Virus record (IMG/VR): IMGVR_UViG_3300010347_002503 | Coordinates: 1-64,000 of that record | DNA: 64,000 bases | Source of the DNA: a virus | Lineage: Duplodnaviria > Heunggongvirae > Uroviricota > Caudoviricetes | Direction: 5' to 3' (one strand) | Shown: positions 2,807 through 24,648 of the stretch, piece by piece | How the letters are laid out: the number at the start of each line of letters is the position of its first letter | How positions within the stretch are numbered: the first letter of the stretch is position 1 | The notes under the pieces: model-generated | What the model was told of the DNA's origin: nothing | Databases searched by the model: none | What the model saw: only the letters and a program-made list of their open reading frames with translations | Position numbers and translations under genes: made by a program

Positions 2807-3721
2807 ATGAAATACTTTTTCCTTTCCATTCTTTTCGTTTGCAATCTTTGCAATGCCCAACCGTGGAGTTTTGTTGCCATGGGAGATACTCGTGGAACAA
2901 GTTCTTCTGACCCTCTAAACGAATCCATTATGTCAGAAATAGCAAACGAAATCGTTCGTCAACAAGCCGAGTTCGTCATTGTTGTTGGTGACTTGGCATA
3001 TTCAGGGTCATATACTTGGTTCAGTAATTGGAAAACCGTTATGGCTCCAGTTTATCAAGCAGGAATTCCCGTTTTTCCCGTGTTGGGAAATCACGATGTT
3101 AATGATATTACTTCCTACCTCTCTCTTTTCAAAAACGATCTTCCAACAAATGGACCCGCAGGGGAAACATATCGAACATTCGCATATTATCACAAAAATG
3201 TTCTCATGATTGGAATGGACAATTATGTAACTCCCGCACGAGTTAACCAGACATGGTTGAATCAGGTATTAGCCCAAAATAAACTTCCACACGTTTTCGT
3301 TTATGCTCACCAACCCGCATTCAAAGCAAATCACACCGATTGTATGGATGATTATCCTGCTAATCGGGATGTATTTTGGACGAGCTTGATAAACAGTGGT
3401 TGTAAAATTTATCTCTGTGGACATGACCATTTCTATGATCGTCTTAAAGCGGGAGGAATTTATCAAATGATTGTTGGAAATGGAGGAGCACCCATAAATT
3501 CATCATATTCGTATAATGGAAATAATTCGTCTTGGAATCCTGTGAACCAATATCATGCTGCTCAATACGGTTATATATTGGTTACTATTGATGGATACAA
3601 AGTTACGGTTTCAATGTTTGAAAGAGTGGGTGCAGGAATTTACACAGAAAAAGACAAGTGGAGTTATTTGGTCCCAGACCCCCATCCATTTCCTCCTCAA
3701 AATATGAGGACTTCAAAATAG
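2807..3721 (+). CDS. secreted calcineurin-like metallophosphoesterase
   Basis: Signal peptide; phosphoesterase motifs GDxxY (VVGDLAY), GNHD (VLGNHD) and GHDH (CGHDHFY). Confidence 0.75.
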   Translation: MKYFFLSILFVCNLCNAQPWSFVAMGDTRGTSSSDPLNESIMSEIANEIVRQQAEFVIVVGDLAYSGSYTWFSNWKTVMAPVYQAGIPVFPVLGNHDVNDITSYLSLFKNDLPTNGPAGETYRTFAYYHKNVLMIGMDNYVTPARVNQTWLNQVLAQNKLPHVFVYAHQPAFKANHTDCMDDYPANRDVFWTSLINSGCKIYLCGHDHFYDRLKAGGIYQMIVGNGGAPINSSYSYNGNNSSWNPVNQYHAAQYGYILVTIDGYKVTVSMFERVGAGIYTEKDKWSYLVPDPHPFPPQNMRTSK

Positions 3722-4784: not shown

Positions 4785-4860
4785 CCCAACCAAACTAATC
4801 TAGTGAAAGTGGCAGACTGAAAATCTGCAAAGCTCGGGGCAGAACCGAGGGTTGGGACCA
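4785..4860 (+). tRNA. tRNA-Phe(GAA), non-canonical (D-loop without GG, T-loop GGCAGAA)
   Basis: Acceptor CCCAACC/GGTTGGG 7 bp, perfect anticodon arm GCAGA-CTGAAAA-TCTGC, T-stem CTCGG/CCGAG, CCA. Confidence 0.45.
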
Positions 4861-5199: not shown

Positions 5200-5285
5200 G
5201 CACACGTAGTCCCCTCTCGCTTCGAACGAGTTGATGCGGTAATTGGAAACTGAAACTGCGGGTTCGAATCCTGCCGTGTGTACCA
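5200..5285 (+). tRNA. atypical tRNA, 86 nt, probable Arg(UCG); D region only ~6 nt, with a 26-nt insert between the anticodon arm and the T-arm
   Basis: Perfect acceptor GCACACG/CGTGTGT, T-arm GCGGG-TTCGAAT-CCTGC, CCA; anticodon-like arm CTCG-CTTCGAA-CGAG. Confidence 0.4.
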
Positions 5286-5932: not shown

Positions 5933-5962
5933 TAGGAACAATTTTTACAGAAGATCACGAAA

Positions 5963-5990
5963 GGGGCGTCAAAAGACGCCTTTTTCTTTT
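5963..5990 (+). terminator. rho-independent terminator
   Basis: GGCGTC-AAAA-GACGCC followed by TTTTTCTTTT. Confidence 0.65.
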
Positions 5991-5998
5991 CTGTGTAT

Positions 5999-6074
5999 GG
6001 TGATAGTGGTGTAATAGTTAGCATTCCAGTTTGTGAAGCTGGCGGTGCGGGAGCATAACCCGTCTATCACCCCA
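5999..6074 (+). tRNA. tRNA-His(GUG) with G-1; non-canonical T-loop AGCATAA and D-loop without GG
   Basis: G-1 plus acceptor GTGATAG/CTATCAC, loop TTGTGAA, T GCGGG-AGCATAA-CCCGT, CCA. Confidence 0.65.
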
Positions 6075-6082
6075 ATTTTAAT

Positions 6083-6167
6083 GTCACTGTGATGGAATCG
6101 GCAGACATGGTTGCCTCAGAAGCAGCCGCCGAAAGGCGTGGGGGTTCAAATTCCCCCAGTGACACCA
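6083..6167 (+). tRNA. tRNA-Leu(CAG), class II
   Basis: D-arm TGGAATCGGCAGACA resembles the E. coli Leu D-arm; loop CTCAGAA; variable hairpin CGCC-GAAA-GGCG; TTCAAAT; CCA. Confidence 0.8.
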
Positions 6168-6177
6168 TTTTTCAAAT

Positions 6178-6259
6178 GCCAACGTGAGCCGAGTGGTTGA
6201 AGGCCCCTGTTTTGTAAACAGGAAAATCATCGTGGGTTCGAATCCCACCGTTGGCTCCA
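6178..6259 (+). tRNA. tRNA-Thr(UGU) (9-nt variable region)
   Basis: Acceptor GCCAACG/CGTTGGC; arm CCTGT-TTTGTAA-ACAGG; T GTGGG-TTCGAAT-CCCAC; CCA. Confidence 0.6.
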
Positions 6260-6468
6260 ATTTCTTAACAATCCTGAGAAGGCAATCTACTATGGTGTAT
6301 GTAGGAGCACAACAGCATGTAAGCTGGAAGAATCGGTGCAAGTCCGAATGATTGATGTAGTATCTTGATTGTAAAGATCTTGATAGACGGTGTGTACAGC
6401 CGGAACTTTAAGTGAAATCCAGAAACGTTTTTAGAAGCATCAAAAGGATCAGTAAACATGATCTTTAT

Positions 6469-6542
6469 GCCGAGTTGATGTAAGAGTAGCCTGCAAGTTT
6501 CGTAAACTTGATGCGTCGGAGCGTTACCGACACTCGGCTCCA
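6469..6542 (+). tRNA. tRNA-Thr(CGU), non-canonical T-loop AGCGTTA
   Basis: Perfect acceptor GCCGAGT/ACTCGGC; arm CAAGT-TTCGTAA-ACTTG; T GTCGG-AGCGTTA-CCGAC; CCA. Confidence 0.6.
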
Positions 6543-6592
6543 TTTGCCATATTATTGCTGCCCATTAACAATTCACAATCGTAAGAGTATTT

Positions 6593-6667
6593 GTCCCGGT
6601 ACCCAACTAGTGAAGGGGCCAGTCTGCAAAACTGGTATGGATGGAGCGTAACCATCACGGGACTCCA
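6593..6667 (+). tRNA. tRNA-Cys(GCA), non-canonical T-loop AGCGTAA
   Basis: Arm CCAGT-CTGCAAA-ACTGG; T GATGG-AGCGTAA-CCATC; CCA. Confidence 0.6.
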
Positions 6668-7024: not shown

Positions 7025-7110
7025 TGATCCGTGGTGTAATTGGTAACACGCCTGACTTTGACTCAGGAGACAGTTTGTTTATGTAGGTTCGACTCCTACC
7101 GGATCAGCCA
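7025..7110 (+). tRNA. tRNA-Gln(UUG) with an anomalous 15-nt unpaired variable region
   Basis: Perfect acceptor TGATCCG/CGGATCA, canonical D-arm, arm CCTGA-CTTTGAC-TCAGG, then AGACAGTTTGTTTAT before the T-arm GTAGG-TTCGACT-CCTAC; CCA. Confidence 0.6.
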
Positions 7111-7916: not shown

Positions 7917-8912
7917 ATGCGTCTTTCAGAACTGATTATACATAAAATTTCTCCAGATCATCTTTTTGAAACTTACACGCTTCCTGAAATGGCCGCTGGC
8001 GATGTAAAAGAAATCTCTCAAGAAGAATGGCAAGAGGGCATTCGGTTGGCGAAAGAACACAACGAGTCTCCAGCGATTGACCCACAAATCAAAGGGTTCT
8101 ATTACATTGATGTCACTGGAAGATATCAGGTGTATTTTACGCTATGGCGTTGGAAAGATGTTGATCCAACGGTTGCTCAATGGGTAAAGAACCCCATTTA
8201 CATGGGGAACATGACCACGAATTTTTTGACTTCGGTTAAAAAAGCATTGGAAAAAATTCCTCGAAGTGTCCGTTTTCAAATCATGACGGACAAAAATCGA
8301 GAAGGTCTCATTGGAAAGAATGTCGTTCGAAGTAATGAAGACATCAAATTTACTTTTGGAAAATACCGTGGAAAATCACTTGGAGAAGTTTACCTTGAAG
8401 ACCCTCGTTACATTATTTGGCTAGTTCAAAATCAAGATCCAAAATATGAGAATACGAAACTAGGTCAGGCATTAAGAGTATTCGCCAACATGTATTACGA
8501 GGAAGTCACCAAGCAAAATCAAGAAAAATACAAGGATGTTCAATACGTCGGTGCCATCGGAGACCAATATGAAGGGGAAATTGAGGTTTACAAGATTGAA
8601 ACTAAGGAGGGACGGTCGTTCAATCGATGGGAAAAGAATCCAACTTATACAGATGCCCGTGCAGTGGACGATAAAGGAAACAAGTTCATTATCTATAATC
8701 TTGATAAAGCATTTCCAAATCATATCATAACAAAAGGAACCAAGGTCAAAATTCGTGGAAAAATTAAAGACCAAAAGGAAATCCTTGGAATCAAATTCAA
8801 TCGAATCGGTTACGTCAAGGGTATTGATCCCGGCAATGCTCAACCAAAACATCCCGAACTTCAACTTCAATCACAGCCGGAAATTCCACACCCAGAAAAC
8901 CCAGAGTTTTAA
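7917..8912 (+). CDS. protein with DUF3820/QSregVF_b-like motif (FGKYRGKSLGEV..DPRYIIWL)
   Basis: FxFGKY+GK..EV...DP.Y..WL signature found in phage replication-associated proteins. Confidence 0.55.
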   Translation: MRLSELIIHKISPDHLFETYTLPEMAAGDVKEISQEEWQEGIRLAKEHNESPAIDPQIKGFYYIDVTGRYQVYFTLWRWKDVDPTVAQWVKNPIYMGNMTTNFLTSVKKALEKIPRSVRFQIMTDKNREGLIGKNVVRSNEDIKFTFGKYRGKSLGEVYLEDPRYIIWLVQNQDPKYENTKLGQALRVFANMYYEEVTKQNQEKYKDVQYVGAIGDQYEGEIEVYKIETKEGRSFNRWEKNPTYTDARAVDDKGNKFIIYNLDKAFPNHIITKGTKVKIRGKIKDQKEILGIKFNRIGYVKGIDPGNAQPKHPELQLQSQPEIPHPENPEF

Positions 8913-8914
8913 TG

Positions 8915-8985
8915 CGGTAGTCGTTCAATAGTAAGACACGACATTGCCAATGTTGAAAGGGAGTATTGCCTCCTTACCGCACCAC
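8915..8985 (+). tRNA. tRNA-Gly(GCC), non-canonical (D-loop AATAGTAA, T-arm GGAG-TATTGC-CTCC)
   Basis: Perfect acceptor GCGGTAG/TTACCGC, arm CGACA-TTGCCAA-TGTTG, CCA; lacks the GGTTC signature. Confidence 0.5.
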
Positions 8986-9062: not shown

Positions 9063-9139
9063 TTTATCCCGGTATGCGTACTGCCACACAGCCAACATCC
9101 TCGCAGTAGGTGGAATTGACTAACTGGACCGGGAGAATG

Positions 9140-9214
9140 GGTTCGAAGCTTTAATAGTGAAGCACGAAGCTTTTAACTTTGAGAAGACGGAGCATTACCG
9201 TCCGAACCCACCAA
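9140..9214 (+). tRNA. tRNA-Lys(UUU), non-canonical T-loop AGCATTA
   Basis: Acceptor GGGTTCG/CGAACCC; D GCTT-TAATAGTGA-AGC; arm CGAAG-CTTTTAA-CTTTG; T GACGG-AGCATTA-CCGTC; CCA. Confidence 0.6.
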
Positions 9215-10196: not shown

Positions 10197-10275
10197 GCAA
10201 GTGAAGCCATAGAGGACGGGCATCTGGCTTTTAACCAGACTATTCGTGTGGGTTCAAGTCCCACCACTTGCACCA
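10197..10275 (+). tRNA. tRNA-Lys(UUU) (canonical copy)
   Basis: Perfect acceptor GCAAGTG/CACTTGC; arm TCTGG-CTTTTAA-CCAGA; T GTGGG-TTCAAGT-CCCAC; CCA. Confidence 0.7.
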
Positions 10276-10320: not shown

Positions 10321-10416
10321 GGGGAGGTAGCTCAGAGGTTAGAGCGTCGAGCCAATGGTTGATTATATCTTCCAGTAACCCGAAGGTCGCAGGTTCAAAT
10401 CCTGCCCTCCCTGCCA
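10321..10416 (+). tRNA. tRNA with ~19-nt internal insertion (anticodon unresolved; possible intron or giant variable arm)
   Basis: Perfect acceptor GGGGAGG/CCTCCCT, canonical D GCTC-AGAGGTTA-GAGC and T GCAGG-TTCAAAT-CCTGC, CCA; 42 nt between D and T arms. Confidence 0.5.
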
Positions 10417-10896: not shown

Positions 10897-11470
10897 TGGG
10901 TTGCAAGCATTGCAGCGATGCAGCGGTCTCTTAAACCGCAGAGCACGGGGCAGCACCGTGGCGACCCACCATTACTTTTCATTTTTCATGTCTAATTCAT
11001 CACAAAATTTGGTGTGTTCATCTCATGAATATTCCGGTTCGTCTCATTTGAATTGTTTTGGATAATCAGATATGGTATGTCGTGAAGCCAAAAAACTTGG
11101 TGGATTCGACATGCGGAATACGCATGTAATAATGAAAGGTCAATACATATGAGATTATTCACTTCAATCGTTTGCACAAGATACGAACACGCCGCTTGAA
11201 AAAGGTAAACTCGTTATCGGTGAAGTTCAGGGCCGGGGTTTTCATGGTCCCGCATTTCAACATGGATGGAACCAACAAGGTCCAAGAGGTCCAATGTGGG
11301 CTCAACGTGGTCCCCGTGGTCCTATAATGTATCAAGATCTTGGGCAACAAGGTAAAGGTTGCTGCTGTCCTTGCCACGAAAAGCATGGTAAAAAACGAGG
11401 CAAGCAACATCGTCACGGACGCAAGTAAAAATATGGTCCCTGTCAATAACAGGTACTTTATAAAGGCTTG

Positions 11471-11509
11471 ACCGCTGTGCCAATCTAATAAAACAGCGGT
11501 ATCTTTATT
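11471..11509 (+). terminator. putative terminator hairpin
   Basis: ACCGCTGT...ACAGCGGT 8-bp stem followed by ATCTTTATT. Confidence 0.35.
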
Positions 11510-11582: not shown

Positions 11583-11583
11583 C

Positions 11584-11675
11584 GCAGCGGTAATCGGTGC
11601 GGTCTTCTAAGCCGTGGTCGTTAAACTCCGAAATTGGATTTGACCTTGTGGGTTCGAGCCCCACCCGCTGTGCCA
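11584..11675 (+). tRNA. atypical tRNA, 92 nt, probable Arg(UCU); D region ~6 nt, with a 32-nt insert before the T-arm
   Basis: Acceptor GCAGCGG/CCGCTGT, arm GCGGT-CTTCTAA-GCCGT, T GTGGG-TTCGAGC-CCCAC, CCA; same architecture as 5200-5285. Confidence 0.45.
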
Positions 11676-13533: not shown

Positions 13534-14115
13534 ATGAGTATTCGACAAAAGGCCAACAAAATCAAAAAAGAGCGTTGCCGCACGTTGATTGCGGTACTCG
13601 AAAACCCCAAAACCATTGAAAATATTGGTTCAGTCATTCGAAACGTTGATGCCCTTGGGGTGAGTAAGTTATACGTAATTGACGGCTACAAATTATTACC
13701 GGATAATTGGCAGGATATGCGTGAGCGGAGAAGCTTAAATAAAATCTCTGCTTCCGCCGTCAAATGGACTTATATCCATCCTTTCAAAACCACAGCGGAA
13801 TGTATCGAACATTTGAAAAGAAAGCATTTCTTGTCGGTAGTAACATCGCCGCACGTAAAAGGTAAAAAGAACGTTTCCCTCGATGAGGCCGATTTCACAC
13901 AGCACCATCTGGCGGTCTGGTTTGGAAACGAAAGTCATGGGATTTCCGACGAAGCCGTTCAAGCTGCGGAATTCTGTGTGAGCATTCCGATGCACGGTAT
14001 CATTGAAAGCTTCAATCTGGGTACATGCTCGGGTATTGTTCTATATGAGGTCACCAAACAGCGAAGACTTTTCCGAAAAAATAAACAGCAGTGCCGAACG
14101 GCTGTAATGGACTAA
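13534..14115 (+). CDS. SpoU/TrmH-family RNA 2'-O-ribose methyltransferase
   Basis: SPOUT motifs ENIGSVIRNVDALGV, VWFGNESHGIS and IPMHGIIESFNLGTCSGIVLYEV. Confidence 0.8.
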   Translation: MSIRQKANKIKKERCRTLIAVLENPKTIENIGSVIRNVDALGVSKLYVIDGYKLLPDNWQDMRERRSLNKISASAVKWTYIHPFKTTAECIEHLKRKHFLSVVTSPHVKGKKNVSLDEADFTQHHLAVWFGNESHGISDEAVQAAEFCVSIPMHGIIESFNLGTCSGIVLYEVTKQRRLFRKNKQQCRTAVMD

Positions 14116-16694: not shown

Positions 16695-16768
16695 GGGCTG
16701 TTAGTTTAATAGTAGAATTCATCATTGACACTGATGAGACGGTGGAGCGTAACCACCATAGCCCACCA
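16695..16768 (+). tRNA. tRNA-Val(GAC), non-canonical T-loop AGCGTAA
   Basis: D GTTT-AATAGTA-GAAT; arm CATCA-TTGACAC-TGATG; T GGTGG-AGCGTAA-CCACC; CCA. Confidence 0.6.
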
Positions 16769-20256: not shown

Positions 20257-20330
20257 GCCGGTGTAGTATAAAAGTATTACACTGCTTTGGTAAAGCAGAG
20301 AAGAGGGAGCGTTACCCTTCACTGGCTCCA
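20257..20330 (+). tRNA. tRNA-Thr(GGU), non-canonical T-loop AGCGTTA
   Basis: Arm CTGCT-TTGGTAA-AGCAG; T GAGGG-AGCGTTA-CCCTT; CCA. Confidence 0.6.
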
Positions 20331-23567: not shown

Positions 23568-23927
23568 ATGGCGATCCGTATAAAAAAATCAGGCCAAGAA
23601 AATCAGCCGTATGTTCTACCTGCTGATAATAAAGAGTTACAGGCTTTTGTTGACAAGTACAAGGTTGACATGACGGAACAAGTGGTATCTTCTATTGAAT
23701 TCGCCATCAACCATAAACTTCCAATCATTGAGGTGTTTCAGTTCAAAGACTCAAAGTTCGTTGTCACCGTTTGTCCGAAAGAGTTTGATATCAACCTTGA
23801 GGCAATTTACAAGTACTATCTGGAAACCGAACAGTATGAACTGTGCGGACGGGTAGCCAAGTTGCGGAATAAACTCAAAGCACAACTGAATGAAAAAAAG
23901 AAAAAAACTCCTACTAGAACAAAATGA
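23568..23927 (+). CDS. hypothetical protein
   Basis: 119-aa ORF. Confidence 0.5.
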   Translation: MAIRIKKSGQENQPYVLPADNKELQAFVDKYKVDMTEQVVSSIEFAINHKLPIIEVFQFKDSKFVVTVCPKEFDINLEAIYKYYLETEQYELCGRVAKLRNKLKAQLNEKKKKTPTRTK

Positions 23928-24648
23928 AAATCCACAGCCCAACCCTCCATATGACAAGAGTCCAATCATACCTCAACGAGAAAAACTACGTATTAATCTT
24001 GACATATTTCAACGCCAACTAACTCCTAAACAGCAATCATTCCTAGACTTAGCTCTAGACAAACAATCTAAACTCATTTTTGTCTCCGGACCAGCCGGAA
24101 CGGCAAAAACGTATCTGTCTGTACAGGCGGCTCTCACAATGATTAGTAATAAACGTGTCAGTGATTTGATTTACGTTCGAAGTGTAGTCGAAAGTGCCGA
24201 AACCAAAATGGGATTCTTACCGGGAGAAGTCGTAGATAAACTGGCCCCGTTTTTGGCCCCTATGATGGAAAAAGTCGAAGAACTTCTTCCCAAAAATCAG
24301 GTTGATTTACTCAAAAAAGAAGAGCGAATTTCGGGATTTCCAGTGGGGCATCTCAGGGGTAGAAACTGGAATGCCAAAGTTATTATTGGTGATGAGGCTC
24401 AAAATATGACAGAAAAAGAGCTTATCACTTTAATAACCAGAACTGGCGAATTTGCCAAAGTATTCATCATTGGAGACCCAGAACAGTCGGACATAAACGG
24501 AAAAAGTGGTTTTATAAAAATGATTTCTCGCTTCGATGATGAGGAGGCCAGAGAGAACGGAATTCACGTTTTTCGGTTTGACGATGATGACATCGTTCGT
24601 AGCGGTTTGGTGAGATTTATCTCAAAACGATTAAAAAAGGTTGTTTGA
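23890..24648 (+). CDS. phoH: PhoH-like ATPase
   Basis: Walker A GPAGTAKTYL and PhoH signature IIGDPEQSD. Confidence 0.85.
   Translation: MKKRKKLLLEQNENPQPNPPYDKSPIIPQREKLRINLDIFQRQLTPKQQSFLDLALDKQSKLIFVSGPAGTAKTYLSVQAALTMISNKRVSDLIYVRSVVESAETKMGFLPGEVVDKLAPFLAPMMEKVEELLPKNQVDLLKKEERISGFPVGHLRGRNWNAKVIIGDEAQNMTEKELITLITRTGEFAKVFIIGDPEQSDINGKSGFIKMISRFDDEEARENGIHVFRFDDDDIVRSGLVRFISKRLKKVV

Follow-up and report, generated by a model that had tools for sequence, protein, structure and literature searches.

The window analyzed here, a stretch of 64,000 nucleotides (positions 1 to 64,000 of the IMG/VR record IMGVR_UViG_3300010347_002503, Caudoviricetes), is a portion of the genome of a large tailed phage, with a baseplate and tail module located at 34–63 kb. 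An array of ~44 tRNA genes, with small open reading frames (ORFs) between them, occupies 4.2–22 kb of the + strand, and CCA is encoded in all of these genes. Nine of them are non-canonical in the elbow, where the D- and T-loops meet. Six have T-loops of the type AGCRTWA, two have GGCAGMA, and the ninth is a degenerate tRNA-Gly(GCC) (Table 1). The association of the two loops is complete within the window, since all nine non-canonical genes have AG without GG in the D-loop, whereas the ~35 canonical genes all combine GG with a TTCRANY T-loop.

All nine genes have acceptor stems with 6–7 of 7 pairs, followed by a discriminator base and the encoded CCA. An anticodon stem of 5 bp with a 7-nt loop, including U33 and a purine at position 37 (R37), was found in eight genes by a strict cloverleaf parser, which made no false calls in 387 kb of shuffled DNA and was supplemented by manual parsing; in tRNA-Gly(GCC) the same arm was recognized by eye and in the minimum free energy (MFE) fold. 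A 5-bp T-stem closed by G53:C61 and carrying a 7-nt loop is present in eight of the nine, with the only exception again being tRNA-Gly(GCC), and the MFE folds show the acceptor, anticodon, and T hairpins in 8/9. As the frame is fixed by G53:C61 and the 5-bp stem in those eight, a mis-registered T-loop was ruled out. The T-arm motif GGAGCRTWACC occurs six times on the + strand of the window, whereas 100 shuffles contain it 0.08 times on average and never more than once, and each occurrence in the window is the T-arm of a sound cloverleaf with encoded CCA. The earlier note on this DNA, made from the sequence alone, had named eight of the genes, and all eight are present where it placed them and with the loops that it gave; tRNA-Lys(CUU) was overlooked there, as it was by ARAGORN and Rfam. 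Its picture of complete tRNAs holds for the cloverleaf, U33/R37, and CCA, but not for the acceptor stems, described as perfect, which include the mismatch in tRNA-Cys(GCA) and, in several stems, G.U pairs.

Table 1. Non-canonical tRNA genes of the window and a related remnant. Scores are in bits; R1 is the class covariance model described in the text; L numbers denote loci of other contigs.
Feature	Position	Strand	D-loop	T-loop	RF00005	R1	Other characteristics
tRNA-Phe(GAA)	4785..4860	+	ATCTAGTGA	GGCAGAA (G54 G55 C56 A57 G58 A59 A60)		40.8	A8 A9; CCA; cloverleaf parse 20/21; MFE cloverleaf, z = -2.9; relative with GGCGGAA in L044
tRNA-His(GUG)	5999..6074	+	AATAGTTA	AGCATAA	46.8	54.7	G-1:C73; called by ARAGORN; same-loop relatives in L016, L047, L121
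tRNA-Thr(CGU)	6469..6542	+	AAGAGTA	AGCGTTA		60.4 (E = 4e-18)	Cloverleaf parse 20/21
tRNA-Cys(GCA)	6593..6667	+	ACTAGTGA	AGCGTAA		48.7	G7.A66 mismatch; called by ARAGORN; only a sub-threshold tRNA-Sec match in Rfam (24.6); MFE cloverleaf
tRNA-Gly(GCC)	8914..8984	+	AATAGTAA (class type)	Irregular T-arm, GGGAG-TATTGC-CTCCT or AGTATTG	30.5	41.6	6-nt T-loop or 3-bp T-stem; MFE fold with acceptor, anticodon, and T hairpins; 1 nt upstream of canonical Gly-UCC
tRNA-Lys(UUU)	9139..9213	+	TAATAGTG	AGCATTA	42.4	64.2	A8 with U14; MFE fold a perfect cloverleaf, z = -4.2
tRNA-Lys(CUU)	10898..10971	+	TGCAGCG	GGCAGCA		52.6	A8; cloverleaf parse 21/21; MFE cloverleaf at -32.6 kcal/mol
tRNA-Val(GAC)	16695..16768	+	AATAGTA	AGCGTAA	50.2	74.2	Called by ARAGORN
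tRNA-Thr(GGU)	20257..20330	+	AAAAGTA	AGCGTTA	48.0	66.7	5 nt downstream of canonical Leu-GAG; no ARAGORN call
Degenerate tRNA-like remnant, G55 type	6286..6356	+		TGCAAGT		17.9	5/7 acceptor pairs; 6-nt anticodon loop; no CCA

Comparison of the 7-nt D-loop AATAGTA with the common canonical AGTGGTA reveals a change in just the first G of the GG. The other G, aligned with G19 and paired with C56, is retained, as is C56 itself (AGC, GGC). In standard numbering, the class is characterized by A18, G19, A54 or G54, G55, C56, R57, U58 or G58, W59, and A60. The G19:C56 and G53:C61 pairs, the 7-nt T-loop, and the normal length of the D-loop are kept, whereas G18.Psi55 is changed to A18.G55, T54.A58 to A54.U58 or, in tRNA-Phe(GAA) and tRNA-Lys(CUU), to G54.G58, and Y60 to A60. 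Pair 54:58 is thus A:U in six members in the window and G:G in two, all eight with A60, and G55-C56 is coupled to A18-G19 in eight of the nine. In tRNA-Gly(GCC), A18, G19, and G55 are kept, but position 56 is T, and this gene may be a decaying member of the class. The register is fixed by two families. In the Phe family, CTAGTGAA with AGCGTAA is widespread in phages, and Pseudomonas phage Boevelstad carries a relative with CTGGTGAA and ATCGTAA; in the Lys family, TAATAGTG with AGCATTA in the window corresponds to TAAGGTG with ATCGTTA in Xanthomonas phage X1. The claim that these tRNAs lack both the D- and the T-loop elements cannot therefore be maintained: although the GG dinucleotide is gone, G19 stays and pairs with the retained C56, and only 18:55, 54:58, and position 60 are exchanged.

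The class genes are interspersed with canonical tRNAs, as had been noticed earlier, and Lys-UUU is present in both forms, non-canonical at 9139 and canonical at 10197. Several members lie 1–5 nt from canonical neighbors and therefore share precursors with them. The His, Cys, and Phe tRNAs of the array, which is otherwise near-complete, are found in the non-canonical form only.

Detection of these genes by standard tRNA finders is incomplete. ARAGORN finds only the His, Cys, and Val members and misses six of the nine, while five reach or exceed the 29-bit gathering threshold of RF00005; tRNA-Cys(GCA), tRNA-Thr(CGU), tRNA-Phe(GAA), and tRNA-Lys(CUU) do not, and the last three give no match to RF00005 even at E <= 10. 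A covariance model, R1, was built from 73 G55-C56 tRNAs of other contigs, none of them from the window or its two nearest relatives. Searched with R1, the window yields all nine members as the top-ranked matches, including the three that are invisible to Rfam, and its canonical tRNAs score 10–35 bits lower than they do with RF00005. No additional full member was found in the window by this search, only the degenerate remnant. Both the recovery by R1 and the excess of the T-arm motif bear out the view that these genes form a coherent class and are not products of random decay. Class members are also left without annotation in the deposited genomes of the cultured phages Boevelstad and X1. Because both the finders and the deposited annotations overlook the class, phage tRNA complements and codon-usage analyses are biased.

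Covariation was followed in 1,390 tRNAs parsed from 2.0 Mb of fetched loci (~1,000 from viral contigs), with the tRNAs matching the selecting pattern left out. In those with 7-nt D-loops, the combinations at positions 18 and 55 are A/G in 39 cases, A/U in 1, G/G in 3, and G/U in 242 (Fisher p = 2.6e-43), and the combinations at 19:56 are G:C in 272 and A:U in 11. Pair 54:58 is U:A in 806 tRNAs, A:U in 91, G:G in 23, A:A in 20, and C:A in 15. The other reverse-Hoogsteen pair, 8:14, has the same repertoire in viral loci L002–L121 (U:A 836, A:U 41, G:G 30, A:A 52). A54 is accompanied by A60 in 166 tRNAs of the phage data, and position 18 is A in 73/73 tRNAs that were selected solely for G55-C56. 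A variable loop of 4 nt is found in 78% of the G55 class compared to 45%, and its 15:48 combinations are unusual. Among 150 random bystander tRNAs, 96.9% of the helix cells are paired, versus 55% in shuffled sequences and 38–49% with slid partners; none of 500 shuffles reaches the observed pairing score, and 54:58 is UA in 113 and AU in 25 of these tRNAs.

Thus, the covariation of the D- and T-loops that had been proposed from the window alone (9/9 versus 0/~35 genes there) is upheld outside the selected tRNAs. The further proposal, that the elbow is replaced as a unit, is not. Both swaps occur together (AGC..T) in 112 tRNAs, but in other phages 54:58 is exchanged alone in 60 cases, giving ATCGTWA with a GG D-loop (ATC..T), and 18:55 alone in 35 cases, giving TGCRANT with an AG D-loop (TGC..A). 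The two pairs swap independently, and the elbow is not exchanged as one unit. Differences between orthologs fit selection for structure: the ortholog of tRNA-Thr(CGU) in L066 is otherwise near-identical but has GGCAGTA, with A54:U58 changed to G54:G58, that of tRNA-Val(GAC) in L068 carries a compensatory change at the T-stem pair 50:64, and the loops of the Lys family differ between phage X1 and the window as given above.

The class was then looked for in other phages, as the earlier note had suggested, with the pattern TAGT-N29-34-GGAGCRTWACC-N11-CCA, which needs TAGT and CCA and so under-samples AAGT and GAGT D-loops and genomes without encoded CCA. At least 120 loci in IMG/VR match, and 103 of the 133 matches listed have acceptor stems with 7/7 pairs; the class is also present in cultured phages of Xanthomonas and Pseudomonas. 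Families specific to one isoacceptor (Lys, Phe, His) are found repeatedly in contigs with GC contents from 26% to 60%, and drift driven by AT bias was ruled out by this recurrence of the same loops. The family of the Lys-UUU of the window is also found in L112, L236, L108, L217, and Xanthomonas phage X1. In three arrays, G55 and an AG D-loop are combined in all of the parsed tRNAs (L101, 14/14; L236, 17/17; L217, 8/8). The loops in these arrays are mostly TGCRANT or CGCRAYT, and two of the contigs have been assigned by binning to Verrucomicrobiota, L236 being a contig of a Lacunisphaera metagenome-assembled genome (MAG) and L217 one of a Chthoniobacterales MAG. Two cultured phages carry unannotated class members, namely a tRNA-Phe with ATCGTAA in Boevelstad (PQ464592, 66679–66753; L122, 6001–6075) and a tRNA-Lys(UUU) with ATCGTTA in X1 (OQ427096, 137064–137137; L244, 9065–9135). 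Additionally, phage X1 has a Glu tRNA with ATCGAAA, which is eukaryotic-initiator-like, a Gln tRNA with ATCGATA, and an Ala tRNA with TTTGATT and a GA D-loop. The tRNA-Thr of Streptomyces phage Wakanda, returned by blastn with the Val-GAC query, was rejected as a relative, since the genes are canonical and the similarity is a chance match of the anticodon arm.

The same pattern, scanned over one genome per prokaryotic species, again matches at least 120 loci, and among those listed ~100 are on chromosomes of Pelagibacteraceae (SAR11), complete genomes included. These chromosomes carry three class genes, tRNA-Val(GAC), tRNA-His, and tRNA-Thr(GGU), with the full AATAGTA/AGCGTAA elbow (for example, L183, 3331–3405, − strand). 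A single sequence of the tRNA-Val(GAC) with AATAGTA/AGCGTAA is shared by 76 of the 120 genome loci among the matches listed, and in complete chromosomes this gene adjoins rpoD and dnaG; tRNA-Val(GAC) of the window is 78–80% identical to it, with identical loops. In SAR11 tRNA-Phe (AGGAGTA/TGCGAAT), 18:55 is swapped alone. The tRNA-Thr(GGU) of strain HIMB1412 (L136) shares its acceptor stem with the class gene and is canonical, and the elbow type therefore varies among SAR11 lineages. The remaining genome matches with intact acceptor stems are mostly tRNA arrays or very short MAG-binned contigs, and may well be of phage origin. The class is thus neither phage-specific nor confined to the genome of the window. 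The earlier note had considered that AGCRTWA loops might be a feature of the tRNAs of the host itself; this applies in part, in that chromosomal tRNAs of SAR11 carry them. The SAR11 tRNA-His has A73 and lacks G-1, as is typical in alphaproteobacteria. That the window belongs to a SAR11 phage with tRNAs derived from its host is unlikely, given its GC content of ~41% and the G-1:C73 of its tRNA-His compared to A73 without G-1 in SAR11.

The nearest cultured relatives of the phage have a baseplate protein that is only ~40% identical (Microcystis phage Mel-JY01 and Flavobacterium phage 'immuto'; an uncultured 484-kb phage is similarly distant). One protein of the phage is encoded with identical sequence on 16 contigs, and the four of these that are listed each stem from a separate sample, which marks the phage as a virus that recurs in the environment. 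A megablast search of 8 kb of the tRNA array against cultured phages gave no match, nor did a protein-based hunt for related loci with ORF 7917–8912. The array is flanked by genes of a PhoH-like ATPase (23890–24648, +), a calcineurin-like metallophosphoesterase (2807–3721, +), and an SPFH/Band-7 protein (1554–2747, +). Searches of 20 further ORFs against Pfam and NCBIfam revealed no enzyme that could account for the class, whether RNA ligase, PNK, CCA-adding enzyme, synthetase, or nuclease. Inside the array, ORF 13534–14115 (+) encodes a 193-residue SPOUT methyltransferase. Its best NCBIfam match is TrmH, the tRNA G18 2'-O-methyltransferase (80.5 bits, under the 227-bit cutoff), and its top three matches in the PDB are all TrmH (1zjr, 1v2x, 7edc). 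The phage thus appears also to act on position 18 of canonical tRNAs, by way of this putative TrmH-like enzyme.

A scan of the window for promoters and terminators did no better than on shuffled sequences, except for one strong terminator-like hairpin at 5959–5986 (+), in which 12 pairs precede a T-run and which lies 13 nt upstream of tRNA-His(GUG). Given this hairpin, the His/Leu/Thr block may be the start of a new transcription unit. Four other elements of the array, all on the + strand, are atypical in ways of their own. A loose scan of the whole window for an acceptor stem, T-arm, and CCA, the rest of whose output was mostly noise, revealed an 86-nt tRNA-like element (5200–5285) whose 7-bp acceptor stem is perfect and whose T-arm, GCGGG-TTCGAAT-CCTGC, is canonical, and which carries a discriminator A and CCA. 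Its D-arm is not recognizable, a CTTCGAA (Arg-UCG) loop may be present, R1 scores it at 17.9 bits, and both ARAGORN and Rfam miss it. A tRNA of 96 nt (10321–10416; RF00005, 55 bits), for which ARAGORN gives the anticodon as '???', has ~20 additional bases in or after the anticodon arm that may be an intron or an insertion. A tRNA-like gene directly 3' of Gln-UUG (11583–11675) has a long extra arm, a canonical T-arm, and CCA; its sole Rfam match is to tRNA-Sec, at 27.5 bits compared to a threshold of 47, and ARAGORN returns nothing. A tRNA-Gln(UUG) at 7025–7110 has a class-II-like variable region of 15 nt, unusual in Gln, in addition to a second, ordinary Gln-UUG at 11509.

Taken together, the nine genes are very probably genuine elongator tRNA genes, most likely functional, and members of a class that is widespread and under-annotated and whose alternative elbow is compensated. 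In canonical tRNAs, G18 contacts Psi55, T54.A58 stacks on G53:C61, and G19:C56 forms the outer face of the elbow (PMC7912444 and PMC4810234), with which the ribosome makes contact (PMC4810234). In the class, A54.U58 or G54.G58 would substitute for the reverse-Hoogsteen pair 54:58, A18 would contact G55, and the outer stacking platform of G19:C56 would be preserved. It is on the G19:C56 face that RNase P and the ribosome stack. Since G19:C56, G53:C61, and the loop sizes are retained, the L-fold is expected to be kept, and RNase P, synthetases, EF-Tu, and the ribosome should still handle the RNA. Strict covariation at 18:55, 19:56, and 54:58, together with loops of canonical size, points to a D/T contact retained in altered form. 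In turn, given the specificities of TrmA, TruB, TrmI, and TrmH (m5U54, Psi55, m1A58, and Gm18, respectively), class tRNAs would have no capacity for any of these four modifications, and U54-U55-C56 would no longer be presented to the proteins that read it.

Several points weigh against this reading. The defective T-arm of tRNA-Gly(GCC) and the remnant at 6286–6356 indicate some decay in the lineage. The D-loop numbering on which the counts for 18/55 and 19/56 depend is secure only in 7-nt D-loops, and the IMG/VR loci were picked for having at least one class member, so the frequencies are not population estimates. SAR11 chromosomes were viewed as 8-kb loci, elsewhere than in which a second, canonical tRNA-Val(GAC) may lie. 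The three-dimensional pairing of A18 with G55 and of A54 with U58 is a proposal drawn from covariation, and we infer from the genes that class members would be expressed, charged, and used in translation.

As to why the class exists, the default explanation is that its elbow is, as a structural solution, nearly equal to the canonical one under selection and has been passed on by descent and by gene transfer. A plausible alternative, ranked second, is resistance to host factors recognizing U54, U55, or G18, such as T-loop nucleases. According to this alternative, the tRNAs are translation-competent, and A54, G55, and A18 have been selected to remove the U54-U55-C56 and G18 determinants read by nucleases and modification enzymes, so that the phage would keep a resistant supply of certain tRNAs. 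CbCash, a type III CRISPR-associated Schlafen nuclease, cuts tRNAs 5' of U55, and single substitutions of U54 or U55 abolish the cleavage; its authors leave the targeting of phage tRNAs as a question (PMC13462974). This dependence on U54 and U55 is consistent with evasion, as is the precedent of phage tRNAs that escape anticodon nucleases by mutations in the loop (PMC10264068 and PMC11464382). The arrays in which all tRNAs have G55 (L101, L236, and L217) resemble the outcome of set-wide selection, Lys-UUU is duplicated in both forms in the window, and the TrmH-like G18 2'-O-methyltransferase putatively encoded in the array could be a second route to altering the same contact. However, only 9 of the ~44 tRNAs of the window are altered, and a broad T-loop nuclease would still halt translation via the other 35; the same elbow is present in chromosomal housekeeping tRNAs of SAR11; for this phage, both the nuclease and the host would be conjectural; and the case for resistance is extended from mutants of a single E. 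coli tRNA. Because only a fifth of the tRNAs of the window are altered and SAR11 uses the elbow for housekeeping, evasion is held as a tentative explanation, rather unlikely, and not as the default. We can also speculate, with similarly low confidence, that this is a second natural architecture of the bacterial elbow, fully translation-competent, which has been spread by phages, in some of them throughout the entire tRNA set, since it would be invisible to the readers of G18 and T54-Psi55 (Schlafens, TrmA, TruB, TrmH), and which SAR11 would have acquired from phages or would have for the same reason.

It is much less likely that these are tRNA-like RNAs with a non-translation job, serving as decoys for host nucleases or enzymes, as primers, or as regulators. 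An altered elbow could shift the recognition of partners, and phages can in principle encode tRNA-like decoys, but class members have full identity features (G-1:C73 in tRNA-His(GUG), correct discriminators, U33/R37, normal anticodons for many amino acids, CCA), fill gaps in the anticodon set, and are ordinary tRNA genes in SAR11. Least probable of all is that they are pseudogenes or decaying, functionless tRNA copies, as the irregular T-arm of tRNA-Gly(GCC), the clear remnant at 6286–6356, the four genes under the Rfam threshold, and the six missed by ARAGORN might suggest, since the same loops recur across hundreds of diverse contigs in genes whose stems are intact, which show compensatory changes and encode CCA, A18 accompanies G55 in 73/73 tRNAs, the array has no His, Cys, or Phe tRNA outside the class, and the genes are conserved at SAR11 core loci.

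Standard teaching presents G18, T54, Psi55, and A58 as nearly universal among cytoplasmic elongator tRNAs. The coupled natural exchanges offer a ready-made double-mutant experiment on the elbow, in which 18:55, 54:58, 8:14, and 19:56 are the replaceable pairs. A class that would be without m5U54, Psi55, m1A58, and Gm18 bears on the purpose of these modifications. Its members are obvious candidates for escape from defence nucleases that cleave the T-loop, and possible scaffolds for tRNAs orthogonal to enzymes that read the elbow. The genes themselves are not new, as many are annotated as ordinary tRNAs in public records, but no earlier description of the structural class seems to exist. In agreement with the earlier note, whose author was not aware of a described AGCRTWA family in phage tRNAs, no description of the class, and no account of A18/G55 or A54/U58 tRNAs, be it in phages, SAR11, or generally, was found in the ~8 million searchable open-access full texts, subscription journals lying outside that scope. 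In a 2021 review of T-loops, the only exception reached by keyword is A54 of the eukaryotic initiator (PMC7912444).

Compared to the canonical elongator tRNA represented by RF00005, the class shares the 7/4/5/5-bp stems, the 7-nt anticodon loop with U33/R37, the 7-nt T-loop closed by G53:C61, G19, C56, and the discriminator with CCA, and it is found in arrays mixed with canonical tRNAs. The differences are at positions 18, 54, 55, 58, and 60, which are A, A (or G), G, U (or G), and A in the class, whereas they are G, U, U, A, and Y in canonical tRNAs, as well as in the mostly 4-nt variable loop, the unusual 15:48, and the depressed RF00005 scores. Phage tRNAs that evade nucleases are known as anticodon-loop variants in mycobacteriophages and as the tRNA-Lys of T5 that acts against PARIS (PMC10264068 and PMC11464382, respectively). 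Like these, class members differ from host tRNAs where a nuclease could read and include an isoacceptor in two forms (Lys-UUU); unlike these, in which the change is in the anticodon stem-loop and has experimental support, they are changed in the elbow, share this change with a free-living bacterium, and are known from genes. The T-loop of the eukaryotic cytoplasmic initiator tRNA-Met has A54, A60, and an A54.A58 pair (PMC7912444). The class resembles it in having A54 together with A60, and the exact ATCGAAA is found in phage elongators, such as the Glu tRNA of X1; however, the class has U58 or G58 and G55 with A18, and it comprises bacterial-type elongators for many amino acids. This likeness would be a structural analogy, with no homology implied. 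Mammalian mitochondrial 'type II' tRNAs and tRNA-Pyl also lack G18G19 and T-Psi-C (PMC7609411), and the GG and T-Psi-C consensus is likewise absent in the class. While the loops in those tRNAs are shrunken or variable and the D/T contact is lost or remodelled, the loops of the class are of canonical size and G19:C56 is kept.

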